64,000 nt of DNA, taken from assembly GCF_988242995.1 (NCBI RefSeq), contig NZ_OZ547043.1; one strand, 5' to 3'. Below, one piece after another: positions 5,546 through 38,257 of the stretch (within the stretch, counting starts at the first letter, position 1; every line of letters begins with the position of its first letter). A model generated the notes under the pieces. That model saw only the letters and a list, made by a program, of their open reading frames with translations. It made no database searches and was not told the DNA's origin. The translations under genes were made by a program, and so were the position numbers.

Positions 5546-6226
5546 TCATCGCCATTGCTCCCCAAATACAAAACCAATTTCAGCCAGTGCCTCGTCCATT
5601 TTTTCGATGAACTCCGGCACCATCTCGTCAAAACTCGCCATGTACTTTTCATTCCGCTCAATCACGACATAATGCAGGCCTTCACGCTTCATGCGCGGGT
5701 CATAGTTGGCAAAGTACCAGGCATCTTTTCGCGTCACCCACATGCTGTACTGCACCTGGGCCATGTAAGCCGATTTTATTGCCTCGAAACCACCGAGCCG
5801 GAATTTCATGAAATCCCGGGAGGTAAACGGGCATTTCAGTTCAAGGCCGTTGCCGTCACTGCATAAACCATCGGGAGAGCAGGCGGTGCGCATACTTTCG
5901 TCGCGATAGATGATCGGGGATTCAGTAATATTCACGCCGGAAGTGAATTCAAACAGGGTTCTGGCGTCGTTCTCGTACTGTTTTCCCCAGGCCAGCGCCT
6001 TAGCATTAACTTCCGGAGCCACACCGGTGCAAACCTCAGCCAGCAGGGTGTGGAAGTAGGACATTTTCATGTCAGGCCACTTCTTTCCTGAGCGGGGCTT
6101 TGCTATCACGTTGTGAACTTCTGAAGCGGTGATGACGCCGAGCCGTAATTTGTGCCATGCATCATCCCCCTGTTCGACAGCTCTCACGTCGATCCCGGTA
6201 CGCTGCAGGATAATGTCCGGTATCAT
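5546..6226 (-). CDS. exo: Lambda-type exonuclease (Red alpha)
   Basis: 226-aa ORF near-identical to lambda Exo ([40 protein letters not shown]...). Confidence 0.95.
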
Positions 6227-7008
6227 GCTGCCACCTTCTGCTCAGTGGCTTTCTGTTTCAGGAATCCAAGAGCTTTCACTGCTTCGGCCTGTGTCAGTTC
6301 TGACGATGCGCGAATGTCGCGGCGAAATATCTGGGAACAGAGCGGCAATAAGTCGTCATCCCATGTTTTATCCAGGGCGATCAGCAGAGTGTTAATCTCC
6401 TGCATGGTTTCATCGTTAACCGGAGTGATGTCGCGTTCTGGCTGACGTTCTGCAGTGTATGCAGTATTTTCGACAATGCGCTCGGCTTCATCCTTGTCAT
6501 AGATACCAGCAAATCCGAAGGCCAGACGGGCACACTGAATCATGGCTTTATGCCGTAACATCCGTTTGGGATGCGACTGCCACGGCCCCGTGATTTCTCT
6601 GCCTTCGCGGGTTTTGAATGGTTCGCGGCGGCATTCATCCATCCATTCGGTAACGCAGATCGGATGATTACGGTCCTTGCGGTAAATCCGGCATGTACAG
6701 GATTCATTGTCCTGCTCAAAGTCCATGCCATCAAACTGCTGGTTTTCATTGATGATGCGGGACCAGCCATCAACGCCCACCACCGGAACAATGCCGTTCT
6801 GCTTATCAGGGAAGGCGTAAATTTCTTTCGTCCACGGATTAAGGCCGTACTGGTTGGCGACGATCAGCAATGCGATGAACTGCGCATCGCTGGCATCACC
6901 TTTAAATGCCGTCTGGCGAAGAGTGGTGATCAGTTCCTGTGGGTCGACAGAATCCATGCCGACACGTTCAGCCAGCTTCCCTGCCAGCGTTGCGAGTGCT
7001 GTACTCAT
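6223..7008 (-). CDS. bet: Recombination protein Bet (Red beta)
   Basis: 261-aa ORF matching lambda Bet; stop overlaps the exo start. Confidence 0.95.
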
Positions 7009-9821: not shown

Positions 9822-10837
9822 CAGGTTCAGAAATGGCGAAAGCCGGTCTGCTGGAACAGAACCGACTTTCAGGTGCAAATCGTAACACACTCATTGCGGG
9901 AGGAATTATGGCAAACACTGCTGAGATATTCAATTTTCCAGTGCCGGATGCGGCACAAAAGGAGCCGCGCGTGGCAGATCTCGATGATGGTTATACGCGC
10001 ATTGCAAATGAGTTGCTGGAAGCTGTGATGCTGGCCGGATTAACACAGCACCAGCTTCTGGTCTTTCTGGCTGTCATGCGCAAAACATATGGCTTTAATA
10101 AAAAACTGGATTGGGTTAGCAACGAGCAACTTTCCGAATTAACCGGGATATTGCCGCACAAGTGTTCTGCTGCAAAAAGTGTTCTGGTAAAGCGTGGGAT
10201 TTTTATTCAGAGCGGGCGGAATACCGGCATTAATAATGTGGTCAGTGAATGGTCAACATTACCCGAATCAGGTAAGAGAAATAAAGTTTACCTGAAAGAG
10301 GTAAATTTACCTGAATCAGGTAAAAAAAGTTTACCCAAATCAGGTAAAGGCGTTTACCCGAATCAGGTAAACACAAAAGACAAACTAACAAAAGACAATA
10401 TAAAACCTTTTTCGTCCGAGAATTCTGGCGAATCCTCTGACCAACCAGAAAACGATCTTCCTGTGGTGAAACCGGATGCTGCAATTCAGAGCGGCAGCAA
10501 GTGGGGGACAGCAGAAGACCTGACCGCCGCAGAGTGGATGTTTGACATGGTGAAGACCATCGCGCCATCAGCCAGAAAACCGAATTTTGCAGGGTGGGCT
10601 AACGATATCCGCCTGATGCGTGAACGTGACGGACGTAACCACCGCGACATGTGCGTGCTGTTCCGCTGGGCATGCCAGGACAACTTCTGGTCCGGTAACG
10701 TGCTAAGTCCGGCCAAACTCCGCGACAAGTGGACCCAGCTCGAAATCAACCGAAACAAGCAACAGGCTGGCGTGACAGCCGGCAAACCAAAACTCGACCT
10801 GACGAACACTGACTGGATTTACGGGGTGGAGCTATGA
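9818..10837 (+). CDS. O: Replication initiator O (alternative start ATG 9908)
   Basis: Lambda O-like protein whose coding sequence contains the ori iterons; stop overlaps the P start. Confidence 0.8.
   Translation: MTGSEMAKAGLLEQNRLSGANRNTLIAGGIMANTAEIFNFPVPDAAQKEPRVADLDDGYTRIANELLEAVMLAGLTQHQLLVFLAVMRKTYGFNKKLDWVSNEQLSELTGILPHKCSAAKSVLVKRGIFIQSGRNTGINNVVSEWSTLPESGKRNKVYLKEVNLPESGKKSLPKSGKGVYPNQVNTKDKLTKDNIKPFSSENSGESSDQPENDLPVVKPDAAIQSGSKWGTAEDLTAAEWMFDMVKTIAPSARKPNFAGWANDIRLMRERDGRNHRDMCVLFRWACQDNFWSGNVLSPAKLRDKWTQLEINRNKQQAGVTAGKPKLDLTNTDWIYGVEL
10256..10370. repeat. Phage origin iterons inside O (5 copies of TTTACC(C/T)GAATCAGGTAA-like repeat)
   Basis: Directly repeated about 18-bp units at about 20-bp spacing within the O reading frame, as in lambda ori. 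Confidence 0.7.
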
Positions 10838-11535
10838 AAAACATCGCCGCACAGATGGTTAACTTTGACTGTGAGCAGATGCGCCGGATCGCCAACAACA
10901 TGCCGGAACAGTACGACGAAAAGCCACAGGTACAGCAGGTAGCGCAGATCATCAACGGTGTGTTCAGCCAGTTACTGGCAACTTTCCCGGCGAGCCTGGC
11001 TAACCGTGACCAGAATGAACTGAACGAAATCCGCCGCCAGTGGGTTCTGGCTTTCCGGGAAAACGGGATCACCACAATGGAACAGGTTAACGCTGGAATG
11101 CGCGTAGCCCGTCGGCAGAATCGACCATTCCTGCCATCACCCGGGCAGTTTGTCGCCTGGTGCCGGGAAGAAGCATCTGTTAACGCCGGGCTGCCAAACG
11201 TCAGCGAGCTGGTTGATATGGTTTACGAGTATTGCCGGAAGCGTGGCCTGTATCCGGATGCAGAGTCTTATCCGTGGAAATCGAACGCGCATTACTGGTT
11301 GGTTACCAACTTGTACCAGAACATGCGGGCCAATGCGCTGACTGACGCGGAATTACGGCGCAAGGCTGCCGATGAACTGACCTGTATGACAGCGCGAATT
11401 AACCGTGGTGAGACGATACCTGAACCAGTAAAACAACTTCCTGTTATGGGCGGTAGACCTCTAAATCGTGCACAGGCTCTGGCGAAGATCGCAGAAATTA
11501 AAGCTAAGTTTGGACTGAAAGGATCGATGAAATAG
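10834..11535 (+). CDS. P: Replication protein P (DnaB loader)
   Basis: 233-aa ORF near-identical to lambda P (MKNIAAQMVNFD...). Confidence 0.95.
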   Translation: MKNIAAQMVNFDCEQMRRIANNMPEQYDEKPQVQQVAQIINGVFSQLLATFPASLANRDQNELNEIRRQWVLAFRENGITTMEQVNAGMRVARRQNRPFLPSPGQFVAWCREEASVNAGLPNVSELVDMVYEYCRKRGLYPDAESYPWKSNAHYWLVTNLYQNMRANALTDAELRRKAADELTCMTARINRGETIPEPVKQLPVMGGRPLNRAQALAKIAEIKAKFGLKGSMK

Positions 11536-11774
11536 AGCTAAAATATTAGCTTTAAAATAAAGTATATCTAGCGAATATAATCCAGGACTGGTTGTAATGC
11601 CCGCAATAATTGATTGCGTGAGTAATAAAATTTTTCTTCCATTGTAATCATTTAACCATAAAGTTTATGAGGATATTTTATTTGTGTGTTGATTTTTTTG
11701 TAACGTTCTGTATATTTCGCACCTCTTGTCATACCAGTTATTTTTTTCATTATATTCATAACGTTGATTGAACT

Positions 11775-14700
11775 ATGACCACTGTGAATAAAAAGTTAAA
11801 AAAAACTGCATCTGGCGCGATTACATGGTCAGTAATTGTTACCCAGATATTATCTCCAGTTTCTCTTTCTTTGATTCCGGCAAACAGTTTTGCATCGTCT
11901 GATAATAAAGATGTTACGCAAATTTATGCTAGCGATGAGCGTGCAAATAAAGTGGCCTCATTTGCAGTAAGTGCAGGTCAGAGTCTGGCGAATAATAATG
12001 CAAGTAGTTTTGCTGTAAATACTTTATCAACTCAGGCGACAAAAGAGGTCGTCGATTGGTTGCAACAATATGGCAATGCGCGCATCAAGCTTAATGTCGA
12101 TGATTCTTTTTCCTTGAAGGATTCATCATTCGACTTTTTATATCCATGGCTGGATACTCAGGATTATGTGCTATTCAGTCAGACATCACTACATCGTACT
12201 GATGACCGTAATCAGACCAATATTGGTTTGGGGATTCGTCATTTCACTCCTGATAATGCAATGTTGGGTGCGAATGTTTTCTACGATTATGATTTAAGTC
12301 GCAGCCACTCTCGCGCAGGTTTTGGGGTTGAGTACTGGAGAGATTATTTCAGGTTTGGTGTAAATACCTATTTTGGTTTATCTGACTGGAAGGACAGTCG
12401 GGATATTGATGATTATCTGGAAAGACCCGCAAATGGCTGGGATTTTTCTGCTGAAGGATGGCTACCTGCTTATCCGCAATTAGGGGCATCTATTCAGTTT
12501 GAAAAATATTATGGTAAAAATGTCGGATTATTTGGAAGCGATAATCTGCAGGAAAACCCTTACGCAGTTACTGGGGGAATTTCTTATACACCAGTTCCTC
12601 TGATTAAGTTTTCTGCACAGCATAAGCAAGGACAGAGCAACGTTCACGATACAACCTTTGGTGTTGAGTTTAATTACCGCCCAGGCGTTTCCCTTGCTGA
12701 ACAGCTTAGCAGTGACAATGTTGCAGTTATGCGAGAAGTCCAGAACCGGCGTTATGATTTTGTTGAACGAAATAACAACATTGTTCTGGAGTACAAGAAG
12801 AAGCATGCACTGAAAATCAGCTTACCAGAGTCTGTTCAGGGGGATGGCGAATCAATCATCCCTGTAACACTGACAATCAACAATGCCAGTGGTGGTATCA
12901 AGTCTGTACAGTGGAATGATAGTGTATTCACTGCGGCTGGCGGTAAGATCAGTGGAAATGGCACATCATGGCAGGTCACTTTACCGGCTTATAAAAGCGA
13001 AGGTGTAAATTCGTGGAATGTTGGAGCCACGGTCCAGGATAATAGAGGCAACGTTTCCAACTATGCGGTGATGAATATTAGCGTTATTAATAGTGGTGTC
13101 TCGACAGCGGATTCTTCTTTTATGTTGGATGGAGATTCATCTCCGACGATCTCTGCTGATGGTCAATCCACTCATCCAATAGTATTAAGCCTGAAAGACA
13201 GTAACGGTAAGGCATTAACCGGACTGGCTGATGACATTGAAATGTCAGTGGAATTTACTGCGGATAGCAATAGTGCTCGACAGCGTGAAACGGTAACTGC
13301 CCCGTCATTAGGCGCGGTAGAGGAAATCTCTGCTGGTGTATATCGCTCTGTTCTGACTGCTGGTTCGCAGGCTGGCACAGTACGTGTAACAGCAAAAGTT
13401 CAGGGAAAAACCTTTACTTTGAATATTAAGCAGGCAGCCGTTATTGATAGTGATGTCTCGACAGCGGATTCTTCTTTTACGTTGGATGGTGATTCGTCTC
13501 CGACGATCTCTGCTGATGGTCAATCCACTCATCCAATAGTATTAAGCCTGAAAGACAGTAACGGTAAGGCATTAACCGGACTGGCTGATGACATTGAAAT
13601 GTCAGTGGAATTTACTGCGGATAGCAATAATGCTCGACAGCGTGAAACGGTAACTGCCCCGTCATTAGGCGCGGTAGAGGAAATCTCTGCTGGTGTATAT
13701 CGCTCTGTTCTGACTGCTGGTTCGCAGGCTGGTACGGTACGTGTAACTGCAAAAGTAATGGATAAAACATTTACTCTCAGTATTAAGCAAACAGCAGCAA
13801 CAGAACCTGATTCTGAGGTCAGTGCTGTTTTAACCGCTGCACCAGCAGAACAGGTAGTTGGTTACAATATCAATCTACAACTGGCAGTGAAGGATTCACA
13901 AGGAAATGCAATCACTGGTGATAACACTCTGAGCTTTTATGCTCTTAACCAGGCAGAAGGAGTCGAGTTTGGGGCAGTAACGGAAAAAGACGGTGTCTAT
14001 AGCGCGACAGTAACTTCAAAACGAGCTGGTAAGATTCGGATCGGTGTTAAATCGGGTAGTCACAATTTCTCAGGTATTGAGAAAGAAATCTCCTTTATTG
14101 AAGATCGAACACAGTTCGCATTCTCTCGTATTGAAGCCAGTAAAAATAATGCATTGGCTGACGGCAAACAAAAGAATACGGTGACTGTAAGCCTTGCAGA
14201 TCGTTTCGGCAATGTTGTGCCCGGTTATGCTGTTACGCTGTCCTTACCTGCGGGGGTAACTCAAGTTGGTGGTGAACATGCTGTGTCAACTGACGAAAAC
14301 GGTAATGCTGTTTTTGCGTTAATAAGCTCCACTCCGGGTTCTTACGTGATTAAAGCTCATGCTGGTTCTCAGATGTCTACTGAGTTAACAGTAACCTTTG
14401 CATCAAATATGATCGGAGCTTCACTGTCACTGACGCCTGGAAACAGTAGCTTAATTTCCAATATTCCTGCTAATGGTAAGGATGCTGCGGTATTGAATGT
14501 GCAACTGACAAATACGAATGCGTCGGTCAATGGACAGAAGATTCAGCTCATCACCTCATCTGAAGGATTGTCTGTACCGACAAATATCGTGACTGATTCA
14601 ACAGGGCATGTTTCCGTACCACTTACAACGGTGAGAGCTGGTGAGTATACGGTGGCTGCACGAGTGACTGACGGTTCCCATAGTGTGGAGTCTGGCAGCG

Positions 14701-15683
14701 TTAAGTTAACTTTTGTACCAGATGCTGCTTCCGCAGAACTTACTATGAGTACATCAAAACAGCAGATTGTGGCCGATGGTAGTGAAAGTGCAACAGTGGA
14801 CATTCAGTTGGTTGATGCCAATAACAATGCGTTTACAGGCGATGTGGATTTAACGGTTACACCATCGACGGGAGCATCATTGACCAGTAGTAAACTGCAG
14901 TTGGATGCTCATGGACAGGCAACAACGCAGTTCACAGCATCGAAATCAGGCCAGTACACAATTCAGGCTGAGTATGTTCTAGATGGGAAACGTATAACCG
15001 CAAGCAAAAATATTGATGCCGTGACGGATGTGAAGGAGGCTGTGTTGGAGATCACATCATCTGCATCTTCGGCTGTAGTGAGCGATACCAACAATCTGAT
15101 ATTTACGTTACTGTTGAAAAGTACGTCAGGCGAAGTATTAAGTGGTCGAGTATTGAATATCAAGGCATCTGGGCCGTCCAAATATGGTGCGTTGGTGGTT
15201 GATAAAACCACTGTAACGACTGATGAGTATGGTCTGGCTACGGTAAGCGTACATGGTCGAACGGCTGGTTCGTATAAATTAACGGCGACCTTAGATGAAC
15301 TTGGCAGTGATGTTAGTGAGGTGAAGTCATTCTCTCTGTATGCTGATGAGGCAAATGGAGTATTGACACTGCATAAAGATGGAGGCTATGACACAGATGA
15401 TGGTACTCCAGTGGGGGTTTATGCCCGATTTGTTGACCATTTCGGCAATCCGTTATCTGGTACGGTTGAGTTTTCTGCTGGTAGTGAAGATAGTCCAAAC
15501 TCTCAACTGGTTAAAATGGAGCCTGCTACAGTAACGTTACACTGGACAGGTAATGCAGCCTCGGAGTTCAGCACCTATGAAAGCGGTTATCACTGGATTA
15601 AGGCCAAAATAACGAACAGCAAAAATACATATGAGAAAACAATAAGGACTTATGTTGTAAAGCTCCCTGAAAAGGATAGTTAA
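11775..15683 (+). CDS. Inverse-autotransporter (intimin/invasin-family) adhesin with repeated Ig-like domains
   Basis: 1302-aa ORF: long signal peptide, beta-barrel-like N-terminal region, then many Big-type repeats; AT-rich upstream region. Confidence 0.75.
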   Translation: MTTVNKKLKKTASGAITWSVIVTQILSPVSLSLIPANSFASSDNKDVTQIYASDERANKVASFAVSAGQSLANNNASSFAVNTLSTQATKEVVDWLQQYGNARIKLNVDDSFSLKDSSFDFLYPWLDTQDYVLFSQTSLHRTDDRNQTNIGLGIRHFTPDNAMLGANVFYDYDLSRSHSRAGFGVEYWRDYFRFGVNTYFGLSDWKDSRDIDDYLERPANGWDFSAEGWLPAYPQLGASIQFEKYYGKNVGLFGSDNLQENPYAVTGGISYTPVPLIKFSAQHKQGQSNVHDTTFGVEFNYRPGVSLAEQLSSDNVAVMREVQNRRYDFVERNNNIVLEYKKKHALKISLPESVQGDGESIIPVTLTINNASGGIKSVQWNDSVFTAAGGKISGNGTSWQVTLPAYKSEGVNSWNVGATVQDNRGNVSNYAVMNISVINSGVSTADSSFMLDGDSSPTISADGQSTHPIVLSLKDSNGKALTGLADDIEMSVEFTADSNSARQRETVTAPSLGAVEEISAGVYRSVLTAGSQAGTVRVTAKVQGKTFTLNIKQAAVIDSDVSTADSSFTLDGDSSPTISADGQSTHPIVLSLKDSNGKALTGLADDIEMSVEFTADSNNARQRETVTAPSLGAVEEISAGVYRSVLTAGSQAGTVRVTAKVMDKTFTLSIKQTAATEPDSEVSAVLTAAPAEQVVGYNINLQLAVKDSQGNAITGDNTLSFYALNQAEGVEFGAVTEKDGVYSATVTSKRAGKIRIGVKSGSHNFSGIEKEISFIEDRTQFAFSRIEASKNNALADGKQKNTVTVSLADRFGNVVPGYAVTLSLPAGVTQVGGEHAVSTDENGNAVFALISSTPGSYVIKAHAGSQMSTELTVTFASNMIGASLSLTPGNSSLISNIPANGKDAAVLNVQLTNTNASVNGQKIQLITSSEGLSVPTNIVTDSTGHVSVPLTTVRAGEYTVAARVTDGSHSVESGSVKLTFVPDAASAELTMSTSKQQIVADGSESATVDIQLVDANNNAFTGDVDLTVTPSTGASLTSSKLQLDAHGQATTQFTASKSGQYTIQAEYVLDGKRITASKNIDAVTDVKEAVLEITSSASSAVVSDTNNLIFTLLLKSTSGEVLSGRVLNIKASGPSKYGALVVDKTTVTTDEYGLATVSVHGRTAGSYKLTATLDELGSDVSEVKSFSLYADEANGVLTLHKDGGYDTDDGTPVGVYARFVDHFGNPLSGTVEFSAGSEDSPNSQLVKMEPATVTLHWTGNAASEFSTYESGYHWIKAKITNSKNTYEKTIRTYVVKLPEKDS
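13083..13796. repeat. Near-perfect tandem duplication (2 x 357 bp) inside the adhesin gene
   Basis: 13083-13439 and 13440-13796 differ at only a few positions; each encodes one 119-aa Ig-like repeat. Confidence 0.9.
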
Positions 15684-15694
15684 CAAAACAGAAT

Positions 15695-15722
15695 AGGGAG
15701 GGCTAAGCCCTCCCACTTTTTA
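15695..15722 (+). terminator. Rho-independent terminator after the adhesin gene
   Basis: GGGAGGGCT-AA-GCCCTCCC hairpin followed by a T-run. Confidence 0.6.
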
Positions 15723-15981
15723 ATTGAGACGGACTGTTTCTTAAATTCACTTACGTTAGATATGAACTGGTTATTTTTTATAACAATAAAAGACTTTTGA
15801 TTTTTGAATATCAGTAAGTAATAATGATTTACGTCGACAGACTGAACATCTGTTGGTGACTTCTGCGCTAAACGGGGACGTTTATGCGCACATACAATCT
15901 AAACTCTCTTCTCTCTTCACAGATGCAGAAATGCACCTGCGATTCTTTGCATCCAACGTTTGACCTCTGCGGAGGTGAAGC

Positions 15982-16437
15982 GTGAACCTCCCACAAGATG
16001 GCATCAAATTACATCGCGGTAACTTCACCGCTATCGGTCGGCAGATCCAGCCTTATCTGGAGGACGGCAAATGCTTTCGCATGGTGCTTAAACCGTGGCG
16101 CGAGAGACGCAGTCTTTCCCAGAATGCACTCAGCCACATGTGGTACAGCGAAATCAGTGAATACCTCATCAGCAGGGGTAAAACGTTCGCCACTCCAGCT
16201 TGGGTAAAAGATGCTCTCAAACACACATATCTCGGTTATGAAACCAAAGACCTGGTTGATGTCGTAACCGGTGATATCACCACTATCCAGTCGTTACGCC
16301 ATACCTCCGACCTTGATACCGGAGAGATGTATGTCTTCCTGTGTAAGGTTGAAGCCTGGGCGATGAATATTGGCTGCCACCTGACTATTCCGCAGAGCTG
16401 CGAGTTCCAGCTGCTGCGTGATAAGCAGGAGGCGTAA
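15982..16437 (+). CDS. ybcN: DLP12-type YbcN protein (GTG start)
   Basis: 151-aa [30 protein letters not shown]... in the nin-region position; GGAGG upstream of GTG. Confidence 0.8.
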
Positions 16438-18004: not shown

Positions 18005-18529
18005 TTATTGTTTAACCCATAATAATTCATTGACATTGAATCCCAACTTTTGAGCGGTTCGCACATAGTCTGCTTTTACTTTATCTGGAATAGTTGGGGT
18101 CCTTGCCAGAATCCATAGGTATTCTCTGTTCGGACCACTGACAAGAGCATACTTATACTCATCATCCAGTTTGATTACATTATAGCCACCATAGAAGGGG
18201 CCAAAAAACGAAACCTTCAACGCTGCAGTTTTAGTATCTCCAGTAAAGTATGCTTTACCTTCGCTCTCGCTCCATTTATTTTTCGTTGGATCGTATCCAC
18301 GGTTAAGTACACGAATCCCTCCGTCGTTCCGTTTTCCATAAGTAGCGCTGACCTGTTCCAGACCACGTTCGAACCGGTTCTCGAGGCGAGCTATTTCATA
18401 CCACTTTCCGAGGTAGCGGTTGGCGTCAAAATTTGTAATCGGCTGCACACCTTTAGGTGGTGTCGGGGCCTTACATGCTATAAGAGTGAAAGAGAGTGCA
18501 ATGCCAGTCAACACAGGCCATAACTTCAT
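18005..18529 (-). CDS. Blc-like outer-membrane lipocalin lipoprotein
   Basis: 174-aa ORF with lipobox (LIAC) and lipocalin motifs (NFDANRYLGKWYEIARL, KVSFFGPFYGGYNVI) closely resembling E. coli Blc. Confidence 0.8.
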   Translation of the reverse strand: MKLWPVLTGIALSFTLIACKAPTPPKGVQPITNFDANRYLGKWYEIARLENRFERGLEQVSATYGKRNDGGIRVLNRGYDPTKNKWSESEGKAYFTGDTKTAALKVSFFGPFYGGYNVIKLDDEYKYALVSGPNREYLWILARTPTIPDKVKADYVRTAQKLGFNVNELLWVKQ

Positions 18530-22154: not shown

Positions 22155-22448
22155 TTATTGTGAGCAATAGACACGCGCTTCCAGCGGAGTATAAATGCCT
22201 AAAGTAATAAAACCGAGCAATCCATTTACGAATGTTTGCTGGGTTTCTGTTTTAACAACATTTTCTGCGCCGCCACAAATTTTGGCTGCATCAACAGTTT
22301 TCTCCTGTCCAATTCCCGAAACGAAGAAATGATGGGTGATGGTTTCCTTTGGTGTTACTGCTGTCGGTTTGTTTCCAACAGTAAACGTCTGTTGAGCACA
22401 TCCTGTAATAAGCATTGCCAGAGCGGCAGAAAACAACATTTTTTTCAT
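22155..22448 (-). CDS. borD: Bor lipoprotein (serum-resistance type)
   Basis: 97 aa from MKKMLFSAALAMLITGCA...; internal start of the 113-aa ORF. Confidence 0.85.
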   Translation of the reverse strand: MKKMLFSAALAMLITGCAQQTFTVGNKPTAVTPKETITHHFFVSGIGQEKTVDAAKICGGAENVVKTETQQTFVNGLLGFITLGIYTPLEARVYCSQ

Positions 22449-29060: not shown

Positions 29061-29315
29061 ATGTCGATGTACACAACCGCCCAGCTGCTGGCGGCAAATG
29101 AGCAGAAATTTAAGTTTGATCCGCTGTTTCTGCGTCTCTTTTTCCGTGAGAGCTATCCCTTCACCACGGAGAAAGTCTATCTCTCACAAATTCCGGGGCT
29201 GGTAAACATGGCGCTGTACGTTTCGCCGATTGTTTCCGGTGAGGTTATCCGCTCCCGTGGCGGCTCCACCTCTGAATTTACGCCGGGATATGTCAAGCCG
29301 AAGCACTTAGCATGA
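29061..29315 (+). pseudogene. E: Major capsid gene E, 5' fragment (codons 1-84) truncated by the satellite insertion
   Basis: MSMYTTAQLLAANEQKFKFDPLF...GYVKPKH then two foreign codons and stop; the rest of E resumes at 40394. Confidence 0.9.
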
Positions 29316-29468
29316 CTTTCTGAGGCTTTCGTGTAGTTGCTGGTTTTTACACTTAATCTTTTGATAATAAAGAATAAGTTTATCTGGTGCTTTCACTGAA
29401 TTTTCCTCGTTATCTGTGTGTTGCAATCATCTCTGTATTGCAGCTTGTATTGCTTTTTGGGGCTAAAA

Positions 29469-30704
29469 ATGGCTGGCGAGAACAAACTGAGCGACAAAGC
29501 GCTTAAAGGATATCTGGGGAAACCCAGAGAAAAGCAGATCACCATTGCTGATGGAAAGGGGCTTTCTATTCGTGTGAGTACTAAAGGGGCTGTGAGCTTT
29601 GTTTTCTTCTACAGGTTAGCAGGTGGCCGGGCTGCTCCGGTCTGGCTAACGTTGGGTAAATATCCTGATATGTCACTCAAACAGGCAAGGGAAAAGCGCG
29701 ACGAGTGCCGTGGTTGGTTGGCTGACAAACGTGATCCGCGTATCCAGATTAAGATTCAGGCTGAAGAACGCTTAAAGCCGGTTACAGTGGAGGATGCACT
29801 AAATTACTGGTATGAAAATTACTGTAAGGTGCGTCGTAAAACTCATGCTGTAACGCTTGGCAGATTTCGAAAGCATATCTTTCCCTATATCGGTCATTTG
29901 CCCGTAAATGACACTCACCTATATGAATGGCTGGACTGTTTTGACCGAATTAAACGTAATGCACCAGTTATGGCGGCGTATGTTTTTTCTGACACTAAAT
30001 TAGCTCTTCGTTTTTGTCGGGTACGCCAGTACGCGACGTGTGATGCTTTAAAGGATTTGCGCATGAGTGATGTGGGGCAGATTGCAGGTAAGCGGGATCG
30101 GGTTCTGGATGAAGCCGAACTCGGCCAGCTCTGGAAGGCAATTTTTGTCGAGCCTGATTTAAAACTAATGTCTGAATACACGCGAAAAATGTTTGTGCTT
30201 TGTACAGTATTTGGATGTCGAATGAGTGAAGCCCGATTATCAGAATGGAGCGAATGGGATCTCGAAAGTTGGGTTTGGACTGTACCAAAAGATCACTCAA
30301 AAACTGGTGTTGAAATCGTCAGACCAGTACCTGAAATTCTACGACAGTGGGTAACGGATGTTCACGAAGAGACAAAACATACTGGTTATGTGCTGGGAAG
30401 TCTGCGAATTAGAGAAAGCGTAAGCAAGATTGGGGGGAAAATCGGTAAACGTTTGGGCCATGAAAAACAATGGTCACTACACGACCTTAGAAGAACGCTA
30501 TCTACTCATCTAAGTGATCTCGGTGTTGAATTTTATGTAGTAGAACAACTGTTAGGCCATGCGCTACCTGGCGTGGCAGGTGTTTACAACCGGAGTAAGT
30601 TTATGGCTAAAAAACTGGATGCTCTGGAACTCTGGACTACATATCTCAATAGCATCGCAGCTGCTGATTCAAAAGTGACAATCCTCAAACAAAAGGTTGG
30701 TTAA
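29469..30704 (+). CDS. Satellite tyrosine integrase (P4-type)
   Basis: From MAGENKLSDKALKGYLG...; catalytic region HDLRRT...LLGH...VYNRS; located at the element's left end. Confidence 0.85.
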   Translation: MAGENKLSDKALKGYLGKPREKQITIADGKGLSIRVSTKGAVSFVFFYRLAGGRAAPVWLTLGKYPDMSLKQAREKRDECRGWLADKRDPRIQIKIQAEERLKPVTVEDALNYWYENYCKVRRKTHAVTLGRFRKHIFPYIGHLPVNDTHLYEWLDCFDRIKRNAPVMAAYVFSDTKLALRFCRVRQYATCDALKDLRMSDVGQIAGKRDRVLDEAELGQLWKAIFVEPDLKLMSEYTRKMFVLCTVFGCRMSEARLSEWSEWDLESWVWTVPKDHSKTGVEIVRPVPEILRQWVTDVHEETKHTGYVLGSLRIRESVSKIGGKIGKRLGHEKQWSLHDLRRTLSTHLSDLGVEFYVVEQLLGHALPGVAGVYNRSKFMAKKLDALELWTTYLNSIAAADSKVTILKQKVG

Positions 30705-30705
30705 C

Positions 30706-30933
30706 ATGAAAAAAATGGCAATTGTTGATAAAAAGGGTCTGGAGTACATTCCTAACATTGACCGAATGATCCGTGAGAAAGAATGTCGGGAGCTAACCAC
30801 TCTTGCGAACAGCACACGCTGGAAGCTGGAGAAGGAAGGAAAATTTCCTAAGCGGATCAAGATTGGTTCCACTGCTGTTGCATATCGTCTTTCAGAAGTG
30901 CAGGCATGGATTCGAGGTGAGTGGGTAGTTTAA
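30706..30933 (+). CDS. alpA: AlpA-family HTH regulator/excisionase
   Basis: 75-aa ORF directly after int; the ORF-track start at 30697 is TTG, ATG at 30706 preferred. Confidence 0.7.
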   Translation: MKKMAIVDKKGLEYIPNIDRMIREKECRELTTLANSTRWKLEKEGKFPKRIKIGSTAVAYRLSEVQAWIRGEWVV

Positions 30934-31002
30934 ATTATCTCAGAATAAAATATTATGAATTACTGATTTGAGAATTTGTACTCAAATCAGTAATAACATT
31001 CT

Positions 31003-31539
31003 TTATAAGAGATTAAATCCAAATAAAGAGTAATCATATACCGGGGTGCATTGCATCCCACTGAATATGCTGATGTTTTTTTCTGTTTCTATCCTTTTTT
31101 CAATAAGTTGTTGTATATTTTTACAGTACAATTTGTGTGTGATGTTATTATCGTAAGCCTGATATAGCAACGTCAATGTTGATGCTATGAAACATGCAGA
31201 AAGAAAATGAACTAGTACATGTGAGCGTTTTTTGGTTGTCCATGATGCATTCGCTTGTGAAATATAAATCATTCTGAGAATGATAATGATGATAGACAGT
31301 AACAGACCACTCAATAAAATAAGTATTGGGTTTGCGTATTTAATTAATGGTTGAGAGCAAAAAACTATTATAGCTCCTGTGACTGCGTATGAGAAAAAGG
31401 AGTAATTAAACTTCTTACTCCTTCTCTCAAGTATTTTAATTTCATCTTGTGTGGGGGTTTTAGATGCCTCTAATATAAGTTTATTAAATGTTTCTGTTAT
31501 CTTGTTTTTTGTGTTTGTGGCTATTTTTTTTAGATTCAT
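31003..31539 (-). CDS. Hypothetical AT-rich membrane protein (2-3 predicted TM helices)
   Basis: 178-aa ORF with hydrophobic segments AVTGAIIVFCSQPLI and ILILLSGLLLSIIIIIL; convergent with alpA. Confidence 0.5.
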   Translation of the reverse strand: MNLKKIATNTKNKITETFNKLILEASKTPTQDEIKILERRSKKFNYSFFSYAVTGAIIVFCSQPLIKYANPILILLSGLLLSIIIIILRMIYISQANASWTTKKRSHVLVHFLSACFIASTLTLLYQAYDNNITHKLYCKNIQQLIEKRIETEKNISIFSGMQCTPVYDYSLFGFNLL

Positions 31540-31889
31540 AGCATTCTAACTCCCTTAACTTATTTATTACTTTCTCTTTATGATAAGAGAGGGGAATGAC
31601 TTGGTAAAGTGATTTGTCATTAATAATGATAATCCTTGCGATAAATATTTCTGCAAGTTATTTACCTGTTTGTTGCTATCTTGTTAAGCGTTGGGTGTGG
31701 TTTATGTTTGGAGCGACTTTATTTAATCGTGATTTTATGGATTTATATTTATATCCTGTAAGATAAGCGCATGTTAGTTCAGGAGTAGTGTCAGATAAAA
31801 TTATTCGGAGTAGAACTACCTTTTCTGTTTATTGCCAGTATTTACATAGCAATGCGCCGTAGTTACTCACATCACGGCGCTGATACTAA

Positions 31890-32195
31890 TTATTCAGATT
31901 CTTTGGCTTTACGCCGCTGGAGTTCTTCACGAGCGACGGCTACGAGTTGCCCGATTTCCTCCGCTGCCTTGATACCGATTTGTTCGACCTTAGCTAAGGC
32001 ATCCAGTGAAGACACGAGGGGATTTTCTCCGCTTCCTTCTGCCTGGCGGCGGGCGATTTCACCGCGCATGGCGGTTACGATAAATCCGGCATTGCTTTCA
32101 CCGTCCAGCTTAACGGATTCCATCCCTTGCATAACATCTAGTGGGACTCTGACAGTTGTCAGTTGTGATTTTGCGTTTTTGTTAGCCGTTGCCAT
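31890..32195 (-). CDS. Putative ribbon-helix-helix regulator (candidate satellite repressor)
   Basis: 101-aa ORF; TVRVPLDVMQGMESVKLDGESNAGFIVTAMRGEIARR fits a beta-strand/helix/G-x-S/helix RHH pattern; divergent from the primase operon. Confidence 0.4.
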   Translation of the reverse strand: MATANKNAKSQLTTVRVPLDVMQGMESVKLDGESNAGFIVTAMRGEIARRQAEGSGENPLVSSLDALAKVEQIGIKAAEEIGQLVAVAREELQRRKAKESE

Positions 32196-32256
32196 TTCTG
32201 AAACTCCTAATCATCGGTGTGTTTCAGTATACACAAAAAAAGAAATACAAAAAGCC

Positions 32257-32292
32257 TTGACGTGTGTTTCATGCGCTCATAACATGAAACAC
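32257..32292 (+). promoter_or_regulatory. Promoter (TTGACG-17 nt-TAACAT) overlapped by a palindromic operator
   Basis: Inverted repeat GTGTTTCATG (32264-32273) / CATGAAACAC (32283-32292) straddles the -10 element. Confidence 0.5.
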
Positions 32293-32385
32293 ACCGAAAG
32301 GATTGTTGAAATACAAAGAGCAACGCCCCGCAGTGCTGGGAACACATACGGGGCGTCTAACCAACAACGTAAACTAGGAGCCGTT

Positions 32386-32583
32386 ATGGTTGCTGTAAAT
32401 CATATACCACACCTTGTACACACACAAACGGCCTTTGTGTGGCGTTTTCTGGCACTGAGTGCCGGAGAATCTCAAATCATCCACGTAACCGCCTGGACGG
32501 AACGCGAAGCGCGTAGCCGTTGCCCGTCCGGTTGTGTTGCTGTATTCGCTGCAAAAATCCGCCAGGGAGTGAGTCATGCTTAA
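32386..32583 (+). CDS. Small hypothetical protein, first gene of the satellite rightward operon
   Basis: 65-aa ORF with AGGAG RBS 5 nt upstream of ATG 32386; the longer ORF-track frame from 31852 is rejected. Confidence 0.45.
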   Translation: MVAVNHIPHLVHTQTAFVWRFLALSAGESQIIHVTAWTEREARSRCPSGCVAVFAAKIRQGVSHA

Positions 32584-32761
32584 AACCTTCCGTGTATTTG
32601 CCCGAGCTGTTAACCCAATAGGCCACACAATTGGTATCGCTCAGAATGTGAAGGCTGTTAATGTTCAGACGGCTATTGCTGCGGTGAGAAGCGAATCATC
32701 AGAATATGGCTTATCACAAGTCATTATTTCAGCAGTGTATGAATTAAAAGAGGTGCATTAA
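32576..32761 (+). CDS. Small hypothetical protein
   Basis: 61-aa ORF; start overlaps the preceding stop (ATGCTTAA). Confidence 0.35.
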   Translation: MLKTFRVFARAVNPIGHTIGIAQNVKAVNVQTAIAAVRSESSEYGLSQVIISAVYELKEVH

Positions 32762-32952
32762 TGCAGGAAATCACATTACACGAAGCCGCTGAACGTGCGC
32801 ACCAGACAGAAATTATTTGCCGCCTTCTTGAGGTATATCCGAACAAAATTACAGATGCTGATATATCCGCGCTGGCGAGCCTACTGGCGCGCCTTTCGGG
32901 AAGTGTCGCTAGTTTCCTCATTGAGGAAGAAAGTAAGCTGGTGGGGGATTAA
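32761..32952 (+). CDS. Small hypothetical protein
   Basis: 63-aa ORF translationally coupled to neighbours. Confidence 0.35.
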   Translation: MQEITLHEAAERAHQTEIICRLLEVYPNKITDADISALASLLARLSGSVASFLIEEESKLVGD

Positions 32953-33174
32953 ATGAATACAGAACGGGAAGTCTTTTTTAAATTGTTAGCATGTGCAGAA
33001 AGTTCATTAACTTTAAATAATTCAGCAAAAGCAATATTAAATATGTGGCTTGATTGCATAAATGACAATGAAGATGCAAATATTGCTTATGGCCTGTTGT
33101 CACTTATTGATGAATCAGCAGAAAAACTCAATGACGCAATAAATAGTGCCCTGCTATCAAATAAGTCGAGTTAA
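32953..33174 (+). CDS. Small hypothetical protein
   Basis: 73-aa ORF, AT-rich. Confidence 0.35.
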   Translation: MNTEREVFFKLLACAESSLTLNNSAKAILNMWLDCINDNEDANIAYGLLSLIDESAEKLNDAINSALLSNKSS

Positions 33175-33191
33175 GTCGAGGAATAAATAAT

Positions 33192-33491
33192 ATGGAAATG
33201 AAAAATTCTGGCTTTATTGCCAGCGGCCCCGCTCGGCCTGAATTTATGAACGGCGATATTTACCGCGATAAATACGGCGGCACGGTAACGATTAAAGGCG
33301 TGGCAGAACGGCGCATCACTTACCGCCGTGAGGGGTATAGCTATGACTGCGTGATGCCTGTTTATCAGTTCCGGCGTGATTTTTCCCTGGTATATGCCGC
33401 ACCCCGCAGTAAGCCCATCAGCAGGGAAAAAGCGCGGGGAAACATCCAGAAAATGAAAAGCATGATTAACGCATTCAGGGGCAAAAAATGA
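33192..33491 (+). CDS. Hypothetical protein
   Basis: 99-aa ORF ending at the primase start. Confidence 0.4.
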   Translation: MEMKNSGFIASGPARPEFMNGDIYRDKYGGTVTIKGVAERRITYRREGYSYDCVMPVYQFRRDFSLVYAAPRSKPISREKARGNIQKMKSMINAFRGKK

Positions 33492-35239
33492 AACTGGCAC
33501 CGAACTTAAAAAAACAGCCACGCGACAGACTGACAGAGGTAATCATCTTTGCAGGTAGTGATGCGTGGAGCCATGCGAAAGAGTGGCGGGAATGGGCGGG
33601 TAAACATATTGCCGCCGACGATGTGCCGCCTGTCGTGCTGGCTGATGAGCAACTGAAAAATATCACCGATTACCGGATCATTGATGAAGATCGTCAGTGT
33701 GTGCGTGTTTACCGCGCAGGACATATCACAGAGCACAGCATGACGCAGATTGTTACGTTACTGGCTGTGGCTGGAGTGAAGACCGTACACGAATACGCGG
33801 GGATTACTGACACCAGCCCAGTGGATTTATCCGAGCAGTTGCCGCGACTCAAAGAGGAATGCGAGCGTGGGGAAAGTCTGGTGCTTAATCTTCCGACGAA
33901 GCAAAAGGCGCAACTTTCACAGATGGCAGACAGTGAACGTGCACAACTACTTGCCGATCGCTTTGATGGTGTGTGTGTTCATGCAGAAAGTGAAATCGTC
34001 CACGTATGGCGCGGCGGGGTATGGTGTCCGGTCAGCACAATGGAGCTGAGCCGCGAAATGGTGGCGATCTATTCAGAGCACAGGGCCACGTTCAGCAAAC
34101 GTGTAATCAATAACGCCGTGGAAGCGTTAAAAGTTATTGCCGACCCCATGGGGGAGCCGTCCGGTGATTTGCTACCGTTCACTAATGGTGTGCTTAACCT
34201 GAAAACGGGGGAATTTTCTCCGCACTCGCCGGAGCACTGGAGCACCACGCACAATGGCATTGAGTACACGCCACCAGTAGCAGGGGAAAACATCCGCGAT
34301 AATGCGCCAAATTTCCATAAATGGCTTGAACATGCTGCAAGAAAAGACCCGCGCAAGATGATGCGTATATGTGCCGCGTTATACATGATTATGGCGAACC
34401 GCTACGACTGGCAGATGTTCATTGAGGCCACCGGAGACGGGGGAAGCGGTAAGAGTACATTTACCCATATTGCCACCCTGCTTGCTGGCAAACAGAACAC
34501 CGTAAGCGCGGAGATGACATCACTCGATGATGCAGGAGGGCGCGCGCAGGTTGTCGGGAGTCGTCTTATCGTCCTTGCCGATCAGCCGAAATATACGGGG
34601 GAAGGCACGGGCATCAAGAAAATCACGGGAGGCGATCCCGTTGAAATTAACCCGAAATATGAGAAGCGATTCACGACGATAATAAGGGCGGTGGTACTGG
34701 CAACCAATAACGACCCGATGATCTTTACCGAACGGGCCGGAGGTGTGTCACGCCGTCGGGTGATTTTCCGGTTCGACAACATTGTAAGGGAGGACGAAAA
34801 AGACAAGGAATTACCGGAAAAGATAGCGGCAGAAATCCCCGTAATTATCCGCCGCTTGCTGGCTAATTTTGCTGACCCTGAAAAGGCACGGGCTTTATTA
34901 CTGGAACAGCGTGACGGTGATGAAGCTCTGGCAATAAAGCAGCAAACGGATCCGGTTGTTGAGCTTTGCGCGGCGCTGGAGTTTCTGGAGGAAGCTCGTG
35001 GGCTAATGATGGGCGGTGGTGGTGACACCGTGAAGTACACGACCAGAAACAGCCTTTACCGTGTCTATATGGCCTTCATGGCATACACAGGAAAGGGGAA
35101 ATGTTTGAGCGTGAATGAGTTCGGAAAGGCTATGAGGTCAGCGGCGAAAGTTTACGGATATGAATATATTACGCGAAAAGTTAAGGGAGTCACGCAGACC
35201 AACGCAACGACTACTGATGATTGCGATGCGTTTTTATAA
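33488..35239 (+). CDS. Primase/SF3-helicase replication protein
   Basis: 583-aa ORF with Walker A (TGDGGSGKST) in the C-terminal half and primase-like N-terminal half; followed by iterons. Confidence 0.8.
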   Translation: MKLAPNLKKQPRDRLTEVIIFAGSDAWSHAKEWREWAGKHIAADDVPPVVLADEQLKNITDYRIIDEDRQCVRVYRAGHITEHSMTQIVTLLAVAGVKTVHEYAGITDTSPVDLSEQLPRLKEECERGESLVLNLPTKQKAQLSQMADSERAQLLADRFDGVCVHAESEIVHVWRGGVWCPVSTMELSREMVAIYSEHRATFSKRVINNAVEALKVIADPMGEPSGDLLPFTNGVLNLKTGEFSPHSPEHWSTTHNGIEYTPPVAGENIRDNAPNFHKWLEHAARKDPRKMMRICAALYMIMANRYDWQMFIEATGDGGSGKSTFTHIATLLAGKQNTVSAEMTSLDDAGGRAQVVGSRLIVLADQPKYTGEGTGIKKITGGDPVEINPKYEKRFTTIIRAVVLATNNDPMIFTERAGGVSRRRVIFRFDNIVREDEKDKELPEKIAAEIPVIIRRLLANFADPEKARALLLEQRDGDEALAIKQQTDPVVELCAALEFLEEARGLMMGGGGDTVKYTTRNSLYRVYMAFMAYTGKGKCLSVNEFGKAMRSAAKVYGYEYITRKVKGVTQTNATTTDDCDAFL

Positions 35240-35252
35240 AAAATGGCAATGG

Positions 35253-35482
35253 TTATCTACCTTGTCTACCTGACTGAAAGAAAATACTTTTATTTCAATG
35301 TATTAATGCAGGTAGATAACTATTTTTCACTGTCTACCTGTTATCTACCTTATCTACCCATTTTTGTAGACAGGTAAGGAGACGGGTAGAGATGAGGTAG
35401 ACAGCTATTTGGGGCTGTCTACCTCCCTGAAACCCGCGCCATTACTGGCCTGATAACTAATCAGGTAGACAAGGTAGACAAG
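35253..35482. repeat. Satellite replication origin iterons (at least 10 copies of GGTAGACA/TGTCTACC in both orientations)
   Basis: Dense cluster of the 8-bp core in a 230-bp non-coding stretch just 3' of the primase gene. Confidence 0.75.
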
Positions 35483-35528
35483 GTGGTGGTGCACAAAAAA
35501 CTTTTTAAACGAGGGGGTAAAAATAAAA

Positions 35529-35786
35529 ATGCACACATCAGGAAAACTGAACAAACATATAAAGCCACATTACCGCGCCCTTGATATGGCTGAACACTGG
35601 CTAAGGGTGGCGATTAAGGCAATAGACCGCAACGCCGGGGAAGGATACGCGAAAGCACATCCCGAACTGATAAGCGCATTCATGACAACGGCGGCTGCAA
35701 ACTTTGCCACGCTGACCGAACGGGAGATTGCTGAAGCGGAGGAAGTGACAACAATCAATATTAAGTCCGGAGAGCAGGCAGCATGA
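35529..35786 (+). CDS. Hypothetical protein
   Basis: 85-aa ORF upstream of and coupled to ssb. Confidence 0.4.
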   Translation: MHTSGKLNKHIKPHYRALDMAEHWLRVAIKAIDRNAGEGYAKAHPELISAFMTTAAANFATLTEREIAEAEEVTTINIKSGEQAA

Positions 35787-36232
35787 CGGCGCAAATATCA
35801 GTTTACGGGCGGTTGGTGGACGACCCGCAGACAAAACAGACCAGCAAGGGCACCCCCATGACGCTGGCGCGTATGGCGGTATCACTGCCCTGCAGTCAGT
35901 CGGATGACGGTCTGGCGACGTTGTGGTTATCTGTCCTGGCGTTTGGCAGACAAGCCGACGCGCTGGCAAAGCATCACAAAGGCGAACTCCTGAGCGTGGC
36001 GGGTAACATGCAGATGAGCCAGTGGACTGGACAGAACGGCGAAACGCGGCAGGGCTGGCAGGTTATCGCAGACAGCGTAATCAGTGCGCGATCGGTGCGA
36101 CCGGGCGGCAAAAAAGGCCAACAGGGGCAGGCTACTGACGCACTGAACAGAGCAAAACAACAGGCAGATCAGCAAGGAAGCCAGCCACCAGAGGGAGATA
36201 ATGAGCAATGGGGAGATGATATCCCGTTTTAA
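35783..36232 (+). CDS. ssb: Single-stranded DNA-binding protein
   Basis: 149-aa ORF with Gly/Gln-rich linker and acidic C-terminal tail ending DDIPF. Confidence 0.8.
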   Translation: MTAQISVYGRLVDDPQTKQTSKGTPMTLARMAVSLPCSQSDDGLATLWLSVLAFGRQADALAKHHKGELLSVAGNMQMSQWTGQNGETRQGWQVIADSVISARSVRPGGKKGQQGQATDALNRAKQQADQQGSQPPEGDNEQWGDDIPF

Positions 36233-36448
36233 ATATTGCCAATAAAAAAAGCCGGAAAAAATAAATTTTCCGGCATGCTACATAAATCCCGACCAAAGGG
36301 AGTGAAGATATTAACACTAATTGTCCGCACTGAAGTTGTCACCCCAAAACTTTATACAACATTGCACTCGGTTGCATGTGTTCGCATGACAAATATCGGT
36401 GATAGCATATATCCACAATTATTTTTAATGAATGCAAAGAGGATGCGT

Positions 36449-37489: not shown

Positions 37490-37498
37490 GGGGGAGCA

Positions 37499-37840
37499 AT
37501 GGCTACTCATTACACTGAACTCATGGCTGGCACTGAAGCACTGGTGACTACGCTGGGGATATTTTCAGCTAATAAAGGGGTAATTCCTGCATTTACGCCA
37601 CTGATGCAGGAAGATGCAACAGGTGCACTGGTGGTATGGGATGGTTCGAGCGTAGGTAAAGCGGTTTATGTTTCCGCTGTACAAATCGACACCGCGAAAA
37701 AAACACAGGCTCAGGTCTATAAGACAGGTGTCTTAAATGTTGATGCTCTGAACTGGCCTGAGTCTGTTAAAGAACTGTCAGTAAAGGTTGCAGCGTTTGT
37801 TGGCTCAGGTATTTCTGTTCAGCCGCTGGCTCGTGTGTAA
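37499..37840 (+). CDS. Satellite-encoded head decoration protein homologue (lambda D-like)
   Basis: 113-aa ORF; TPLMQEDATGALVVWDGSSVGKAV...VYKTG parallels lambda [22 protein letters not shown]...FYKSG. Confidence 0.7.
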   Translation: MATHYTELMAGTEALVTTLGIFSANKGVIPAFTPLMQEDATGALVVWDGSSVGKAVYVSAVQIDTAKKTQAQVYKTGVLNVDALNWPESVKELSVKVAAFVGSGISVQPLARV

Positions 37841-37851
37841 AGGGGGATACA

Positions 37852-38235: not shown

Positions 38236-38257
38236 TGAAATTAGGGCCCGCTCTGGC

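Follow-up and report, generated by a model that had tools for sequence, protein, structure and literature searches.

A predicted FdeC-like inverse autotransporter adhesin in the P-ninB slot of a lambdoid prophage

The subject of this analysis is a cassette at positions 11536-15722 of a 64,000-nucleotide stretch of contig NZ_OZ547043.1 (RefSeq assembly GCF_988242995.1), the whole of which is referred to here as the window. The cassette lies between the replication gene P and ylcH/ybcN of a lambdoid prophage of Escherichia coli and consists of an AT-rich spacer, a gene for a predicted surface adhesin of the inverse autotransporter (IAT; type Ve secretion) class and a terminator hairpin. All features are on the + strand unless stated otherwise.

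The cassette and its gene

The adhesin coding sequence (CDS) occupies 11775..15683, including the stop codon, and forms an uninterrupted open reading frame (ORF) of 1302 aa with an ATG start. At the local base composition, a stop-free run of 1302 codons would be expected by chance with a probability of ~3e-35. Identical CDS boundaries were present in the RefSeq annotation of NZ_CP159453 (locus L001), which is 100% identical to the window over 11400-16000. The original prediction, made from the sequence without database searches, placed a 1302-aa accessory gene of the prophage between P and ybcN, an assignment with which the ORF, the RefSeq CDS and the flanking genes all agreed. A frameshift was looked for, and the gene was found to be intact; the complete genomes that were examined, among them that of the resequenced strain EC958, have it annotated as a CDS of full length.

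Homology to relatives (phage 82, K-12 DLP12 and others) ended at 11523 and resumed at 15795-15839, and the boundaries of the cassette homology were sharp, falling at 11524-11536 on the left and at 15722 on the right. The left edge of the cassette (11536) is the base immediately following the P stop codon, and the right edge (15722), just past the terminator hairpin, is the point at which homology among cassette alleles ends. The adhesin gene had a GC content of 43.9% and a third-codon-position GC fraction (GC3) of 0.36, compared with GC values of 0.48-0.53 and GC3 values of 0.47-0.60 for the flanking O, P, ybcN, ybcO, rusA and Q genes. This difference in GC3 and the 28% GC content of the spacer indicated that the cassette is compositionally foreign. 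No direct or inverted repeats beyond chance expectation were detected at the cassette edges, and nothing pointed to insertion by a transposon-like or site-specific mechanism; cassettes are more likely to be exchanged by homologous recombination within P and ninB on either side. The sharp-edged insertion, the deviating base composition and the dedicated terminator are among the features by which a moron is recognized.

The upstream control region (11536..11774) is a 239-bp spacer with a GC content of 28%. This spacer was 96% identical over six alleles, with the final ~90 nt before the ATG being invariant, and was conserved more strongly than the synonymous sites of the adhesin gene. Sigma-70-like, promoter-like hexamer pairs were located at 11552-11581, 11689-11716 and 11726-11753. 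The AT-richness of the spacer and its conservation between alleles suggested the presence of a putative promoter. Directly upstream of the -35-like hexamer at 11689 is an ATTTT repeat tract (11675..11683), whose copy number differed by allele in an alignment, with ~2 copies in the window and L012, 3 in L008, EC958 and L007, and 4 in L009; changes in copy number could affect promoter geometry or the phasing of an UP element. An Rfam scan of 11300-16100 returned a single sub-threshold chance match, and folding of the spacer RNA was no better than that of shuffled sequences (z = -1.1). These results provided no evidence for a leader RNA.

The cassette ends in an intrinsic terminator (15696..15722), which comprises a GGGAGGGC-TAA-GCCCTCCC hairpin and a T-run. 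The hairpin itself (15696-15714) has an 8-bp, G+C-rich stem, starts 13 nt past the stop codon and is followed by the T-run. Its folding free energy was -17.4 kcal/mol (z = -3.9 relative to shuffles), consistent with the claim of the original prediction that the gene has its own terminator. The hairpin was also retained in the other allele described below, where it separates the adhesin gene from a hydrolase gene in convergent orientation.

Protein architecture and relation to known families

The domain order of the predicted product, a signal peptide followed by an N-terminal barrel and a C-terminal immunoglobulin (Ig)-like passenger, is that of an inverse autotransporter. The signal peptide (11775..11894; residues 1 to ~40, MTTVNKKLKK... 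SFA|SS) was recognized from its charge and hydropathy profile, which showed a basic n-region, a hydrophobic core at residues 13-33 and a putative cleavage site at SFA|SS near residue 40; these are properties of the sequence only. It aligned with the N terminus of FdeC, and long signal peptides are typical of intimin/invasin-class proteins. A short periplasmic segment (residues 41-96) lies between the signal peptide and the beta-barrel translocator (12063..12797; residues 97-341). No Pfam match to LysM was detected in the 1302-aa adhesin, including residues 41-96. The Pfam family PF11924 (IAT_beta) matched residues 69-334 with an E value of 5e-101, and residues 97-341 matched two barrels of known structure over their full length, that of invasin (4e1t; E = 3e-73) and that of intimin (4e1s; E = 4e-63).

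The passenger begins with a D00-like Ig domain (12798..13106; residues 342-444), which matched intimin D00-D0 (6tqd) with an E value of 2e-9 and was common to 146 of the 150 representatives of other IAT clusters. This domain is followed by two tandem Ig-like domains (13082..13789; approximately residues 445-563 and 564-682), with Invasin_D3 matches at residues 445-546 and 563-663, and by five further Big_1/Invasin_D3 Ig-like domains (13821..15344; approximately residues 683-1190), with Big_1 matches at residues 699-760, 785-875, 895-980, 989-1067 and 1094-1175. Parts of the passenger also matched solved FdeC and invasin structures. The long signal peptide read from the sequence profile, together with the beta-barrel N-terminal region with a translocator and the run of Ig-like repeats (Big_1/Invasin_D3 matches spread over residues 445-1175) recovered by domain search, agreed with what had been proposed from the letters alone.

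The last ~112 residues form a tip domain (15345..15680; residues 1191-1302), which appeared to be all-beta and Ig-like. The tip had no Pfam match, whether to a lectin or to any other family, and among the 150 diverse representatives it appeared in no cluster but the adhesin's own. Residues 1085-1302, when modeled with AlphaFold at a predicted local distance difference test (pLDDT) score of 86.8, formed two all-beta sandwiches and zero helices, the first sandwich being the last of the five Big_1 domains, and the top Foldseek matches to this model were Ig-like domains of intimin, invasin, InvD/InvE and FdeC. The strands-only model and these fold matches indicated that the tip is Ig-like and not a C-type-lectin cap. 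Based on Pfam matches and their spacing, the passenger was estimated to contain about nine Ig-like domains, namely D00, the two tandem domains, the five Big_1 domains and the tip. A fold prediction for residues 341-1101 from a four-allele alignment was too poor to be used for counting domains (pLDDT, 50; predicted template modeling score, 0.29). The protein is free of cysteine, a property that suits a passenger crossing the outer membrane unfolded, as in type V secretion.

The two tandem domains correspond to a repeat detected by Tandem Repeats Finder at 13082-13789, with a 357-bp unit present in 2.0 copies that are 95% identical. Each unit encodes a 119-aa Ig-like domain, and the two domains share 89% identity as protein. 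Homologues fell into length classes of 1064, 1183, 1302, 1421 and 1540 aa, corresponding to 0, 1, 2, 3 and 4 copies of the repeat, and the repeat motif was spaced at 119 residues in homologues from the protein database. One or two copies were present in the loci from IMG/VR and three in EC958.

Comparison with the NCBIfam models placed the protein in the superfamily but well below every equivalog cut-off. The scores (bits/cut-off) were 398/2400 for the IatC N terminus, 333/1400 for intimin, 321/999 for SinH (IatB), 313/1125 for Ilp, 300/750 for YrIlm, 276/710 for Inv and 273/508 for YchO (IatA). When the N-terminal 450 residues were compared with a library of clusters formed at 50% identity, the protein's own cluster matched at 98% and all others at <=50%; the nearest other clusters were likewise under every equivalog cut-off. 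The top non-self cluster (P0122) is flanked by ykgR and ykgA, with the ecp operon as a neighbor, and carries the RefSeq name fdeC (L037-L039).

FdeC (EaeH) is the closest named relative. The two proteins are collinear from the signal peptide to approximately residue 1200, with 33% identity over 1227 aa in a comparison with FdeC of LF82 and 48% identity to P0122 over the N-terminal 420 aa, the translocator region, and are of similar size (1416 aa for FdeC and 1302 aa for the adhesin). Both are without LysM and without a C-type-lectin tip, and both have Ig-like domains of ~100-120 aa. FdeC has been described as lacking a C-type-lectin domain and as having ~120-aa Ig-like domains, three of which span 126 Angstrom; it binds cells and matrix, is induced by host-cell contact and helps in colonizing the bladder and kidney (PMC3324786). 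The adhesin differs from FdeC in having a unique tip, a variable-number 119-aa tandem Ig repeat and a RefSeq name other than FdeC, and in being located on a prophage cassette between P and ybcN, whereas fdeC is chromosomal at the ykgR-ykgA locus. The original description of the protein as intimin/invasin-like was therefore correct at the superfamily level but not for the nearest relative, FdeC, nor for the tip, which has no C-type-lectin domain. Intimin (Eae) and Yersinia invasin share with the adhesin the type Ve class, the barrel and the Ig-like passenger folds, but the C-type-lectin receptor-binding domain (D3 of intimin and D5 of invasin) is missing from the adhesin, as are the LysM domain and the Tir/locus of enterocyte effacement (LEE) context of intimin. 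YeeJ, IatC and IatD have LysM and lectin domains, both of which are missing here; the separation of the adhesin from YeeJ and IatD was based on this difference and on cluster identities of <=50%, without a direct pairwise alignment.

Seven groups of Escherichia coli IATs (intimin, FdeC, YeeJ and IatA-D) were recognized in the survey of Goh et al. 2019, with within-group identities of >98% for IatA and IatD, >89% for IatB and >78% for IatC and with none given for FdeC (PMC6714894). Strains EC958 and CD306 were scored for fdeC, iatA and iatB only in Data Set S1 of that survey (PMC6714894), but both genomes (EC958, L032/L043; CD306, H58) carry a PF11924-containing adhesin gene of the type described here. 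The repeats may have led to this omission through faulty annotation or assembly. Absence from the seven-group survey despite inclusion of carrier genomes pointed to an uncatalogued additional group. The protein is an unnamed further member of a well-known class and not a new kind of system.

A literature search found no characterized phage-borne inverse autotransporter and only one passing mention of this gene (PMC8541385). Papers on ST410, meat-plant isolates, NCTC 86 and small-colony variants of ST131 were considered and set aside, as they concerned YeeJ or FdeC instead. The passing mention is by Terwilliger et al., who listed EC958_1349 among the variants of an ST131 isolate obtained after phage therapy and remarked on the homology of its barrel to FdeC (PMC8541385). 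Identity of EC958_1349 with this gene would fit the single EC958 copy, located at 1.266 Mb in a prophage.

Prophage context, distribution and selection

The window is collinear with a lambdoid prophage located beside tRNA-Arg (argU) with intD, which is the DLP12 site. The gene order is cI-like, cro-like, cII-like, O, P, the cassette, ylcH-like orf33, ybcN (ninB), ninE, ybcO, rusA and Q. On the left of the slot, P (10834..11535) matched PHROG 109, a P-like helicase loader, with an E value of 1e-98 and is annotated as 'replication protein P' in L001. On the right are the ylcH-like orf33 (15884-15985) and ybcN/ninB (15982-16437), the latter matching PHROG 72 (NinB/Orf; E = 4e-52) and annotated as such in RefSeq. 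The prophage has no ren after P and has the adhesin cassette in its place. In lambda, the P-NinB interval holds ren alone, while the slot contains ren, an acyltransferase gene and an outer-membrane lipoprotein gene in PhiR30_1, ren and the PD-lambda-1 defense gene in PhiR26_1, and emrE-ylcJ-ybcK-ybcL-ybcM in K-12 DLP12, which also occupies the argU site. These varied tenants indicated that the P-ninB slot is a general cargo site. The expectation that related prophages carry small genes at this position was correct for lambda, with ren only, but not for PhiR30_1, PhiR26_1 and DLP12, in which the cargo amounts to 1-4 kb. The adhesin gene resembles the lambdoid morons for outer-membrane proteins (Lom, Bor/Iss) and the other tenants of the slot (ren, PD-lambda-1 and emrE-ybcM) in being lambdoid accessory cargo, of distinct composition and with a dedicated terminator; it differs in its type V secretion mechanism and in the size of the cassette (3.9 kb), which is far bigger than typical morons.

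The position of the gene was constant among close relatives. All 28 close IMG/VR viral contigs had the adhesin gene between P and ylcH-ybcN, with the identity of O ranging from 67 to 100% and that of P falling to just 88% in one locus. In EC958, the cassette is present in another lambdoid prophage, with a different integrase and a different Q, at the icd site. At least two prophage backgrounds, at the argU and icd sites, therefore carry the gene. A second group of alleles, ~94% identical to the window adhesin at the protein level, was the commoner and includes EC958. In this group the adhesin gene is followed by an extra, convergent gene encoding a 347-aa lipoprotein-type alpha/beta hydrolase (- strand; L008 7599-8642, L032 13303-14346 and L043 18420-19463; RefSeq, alpha/beta hydrolase). 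A lipoprotein-like signal (…SVGSC) and the esterase motif GDSAGG were recognized in the hydrolase, which showed only weak NCBIfam similarity to hormone-sensitive-lipase-type esterases. The window lacks this gene and has 116 bp of unrelated DNA in its stead.

Of 5426 complete E. coli genomes, 559 (10.3%) contained the 1.3 kb encoding the translocator, almost invariably in one copy, and 199 had the cassette arrangement of the window (>=80% of 11400-16000 covered). Carriers included EC958 and other ST131 strains and isolates of humans, pets, birds, shellfish and water. Carriage by plasmids was considered and discounted, as the three 'plasmid' copies lie in non-mobilizable records of 237-542 kb and are not evidence for it. 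The adhesin gene defines PHROG 7803 and PHROG 16344, both of which are labeled 'unknown function'.

Comparison of alleles, for which the rate of synonymous substitution (dS) was roughly 0.1-0.4, gave ratios of nonsynonymous to synonymous substitution (dN/dS) of 0.15 overall, 0.03-0.07 for the barrel and 0.09-0.44 for the passenger domains. The barrel was the most conserved part of the protein, with 98.8-99.2% amino acid identity between alleles. The dN/dS values indicated purifying selection over the whole protein, with the strongest constraint on the translocator, which is a known pattern of intimin-type proteins.

A 1186-aa relative with a single repeat unit was observed in a metagenomic contig (L028 7977-11537; IMG/VR UViG 3300023185_000015), whose host is probably another enterobacterium. 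It was 64% identical to the adhesin in the N-terminal 450 aa and 56% identical overall, and its gene is located just past an integrase gene, by iolB/iolE-like chromosomal genes, and not between P and ninB. This position indicated that the family is also found at the edge of another integrative element. The nearest LysM-less relative from outside E. coli (P0127) has an ordinary chromosomal context, and hence prophage carriage is no general habit of the wider branch.

In the major-capsid-gene region of the window, ~11 kb of DNA (29305-40391) was found that is missing from the collinear prophage of NZ_CP159453. Identical copies of this DNA elsewhere are annotated as encoding a tyrosine integrase, a primase-family/DUF5906 protein, a single-stranded DNA-binding protein and their own 'major capsid protein', and the segment looks like a phage satellite or an element resembling a phage-inducible chromosomal island, situated within the capsid gene of a helper prophage. 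At least 80% of it was present in 46 of the 5426 genomes. The window prophage would probably be unable to form capsids unless this element excises.

Proposed role and alternative explanations

The observations were best accommodated by a self-contained moron in the P-ninB slot of an argU lambdoid prophage that encodes an FdeC-like type Ve adhesin, an explanation to which we assign a probability of roughly 0.8. By analogy with its relatives, the product may act in adhesion or biofilm formation as a lysogenic-conversion factor. Following the mechanism established for intimin and invasin, the protein would be exported by Sec, and the beta-barrel assembly machinery (BAM) would then insert a 12-strand-type barrel in the outer membrane. 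The cysteine-free passenger would be threaded outward in hairpin fashion, with the C terminus emerging last, and would form a surface rod. If each of the nine domains contributes ~4 nm, as in the FdeC crystal structure, this rod would be ~35-40 nm long, and gain or loss of the 119-aa repeat would alter its reach. Expression in the lysogen could occur from the gene's own putative AT-rich promoter, which is probably silenced by H-NS given the 28%-GC region. As the gene is oriented like the early-right operon, read-through by antitermination might allow its transcription in lytic growth as well. Judging from FdeC, YeeJ and IatB-D, the product would promote adhesion to surfaces or host cells or the formation of biofilm, and such a lysogenic-conversion trait might benefit both host and prophage. 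For IatB, IatC and IatD, surface exposure and biofilm formation upon overexpression have been reported (PMC6714894).

Several observations weighed against this explanation. First, sigma-70-like matches in the upstream region were no commoner than in shuffled sequences (11 found and 10.3 expected), such that of the AT-rich promoter region originally proposed, the AT-richness (28% GC) stood and the promoter did not reach statistical support. Second, other E. coli IATs are often silent under laboratory conditions (PMC6714894), which suggests that the adhesin gene may rarely be expressed. Third, the tip is unique to the family, and so the ligands of FdeC, intimin or invasin cannot be assigned to it by analogy. 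Fourth, the adhesin gene was found at the DNA level in no deposited phage genome of INPHARED; at the protein level there were only two distant matches (33-40% identity), neither of them in a bona fide phage genome. Finally, interruption of the capsid gene by the 29305-40391 element suggested that the cassette has here probably been inherited vertically and not via phage particles.

A more far-reaching version of the proposal appeared doubtful. It holds that the adhesin represents an unrecognized eighth group of E. coli IATs mobilized by lambdoid phages, would be the first phage-transmissible type Ve adhesin and is a genuine lysogenic-conversion colonization factor (of ST131 and others), with the 0-4 Ig units and the ATTTT tract tuning reach and expression, or that it doubles as an anti-phage surface shield.

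We consider it unlikely that the gene is silent cargo, that is, an H-NS-silenced hitchhiker with no current phenotype that is kept with the prophage. A high AT content such as that of the gene and its spacer is typically seen in xenogeneically silenced DNA, the promoter scan gave no significant signal, and other E. coli IATs were not detectably expressed in the laboratory (PMC6714894). A hitchhiker of this kind is, however, difficult to reconcile with a dN/dS of 0.15 over 1302 codons at a dS of ~0.2 and with the barrel being the most constrained part, which indicated long-term selection on the protein. Furthermore, the ORF was intact over hundreds of genomes and in two prophage backgrounds, and the upstream region was conserved beyond the level of synonymous sites.

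The Ig-like rod could instead serve the prophage, either by shielding outer-membrane receptors (superinfection exclusion or phage resistance) or by aggregating lysogens with susceptible cells to aid its spread, and there was little to recommend this possibility. In relatives, the P-ninB slot holds exclusion or defense genes (ren in lambda and PD-lambda-1 in PhiR26_1), and the gene was reported to be altered in the ST131 isolate recovered after phage therapy (PMC8541385). That isolate was, however, still fully susceptible to phage, with an efficiency of plating of ~1 (PMC8541385). The insertion, deletion and substitution calls in EC958_1349 were derived from short reads mapped to EC958 (PMC8541385 Table 2), the other entries of the same table include the repeat-containing or paralogous genes upaH and gadA/gadB, and the calls may be mapping artifacts arising from the three near-identical 357-bp repeats. 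In addition, PADLOC gave no defense model for the adhesin and none for its companion hydrolase, and the characterized relatives are all adhesins or biofilm factors. A virion protein, comparable to the Ig-like decoration protein Hoc of T4 or to Big_2-bearing tail proteins, is suggested by the frequency of Ig-like domains on phage particles and by the location of the gene in a prophage but is extremely improbable given the Sec signal peptide, the complete outer-membrane barrel translocator, the dedicated terminator and a position in the early/nin region and not among structural genes.

Intimin, invasin and FdeC-class adhesins are colonization factors and vaccine candidates. Viewed as an FdeC-like adhesin on a moron, the gene adds to these proteins an uncatalogued family member on prophages that are, or at one time were, transmissible. 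It occurs in roughly 10% of complete E. coli genomes, among them that of the ST131 reference EC958, and supplies an entry missing from the published inventory of E. coli IATs. By analogy, it is a plausible contributor to colonization or biofilm formation. Mechanistic novelty is nil, as the secretion class, the domain types and the layout of a moron in a cargo slot are all well known. Relevance to E. coli pathogenomics is moderate and lies in the presence of the gene in ST131, in the possibility that its product acts in adhesion or serves as an antigen, and in the inventory gap.

Other cargo and insertions were observed in this and related prophages. A lipocalin-family (Blc-like) gene is located downstream of Q at 18005-18529 (- strand) and encodes a 174-aa protein with a lipoprotein signal; it belongs to PHROG 2809 (unknown function), is named 'lipocalin family protein' in RefSeq and is likely to be cargo. 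A YbgA-family gene follows the lipocalin gene in L001, and the corresponding place in K-12 DLP12 is taken by nmpC. Downstream of the lysis genes, at ~22155-22448 of the window, is iss/bor, encoding the increased serum survival lipoprotein, which was located by collinearity with L001 32017-32310. The prophage thus bears at least two surface-related conversion genes, iss/bor and the adhesin gene, and the icd prophage of EC958 that carries the adhesin cassette also has iss. An IS3-family element is present between rusA and Q in NZ_CP159453 (L001 25905-27067) and absent from the window, and in L003 a ~1.3-kb insertion (5656-6987) breaks ybcN.

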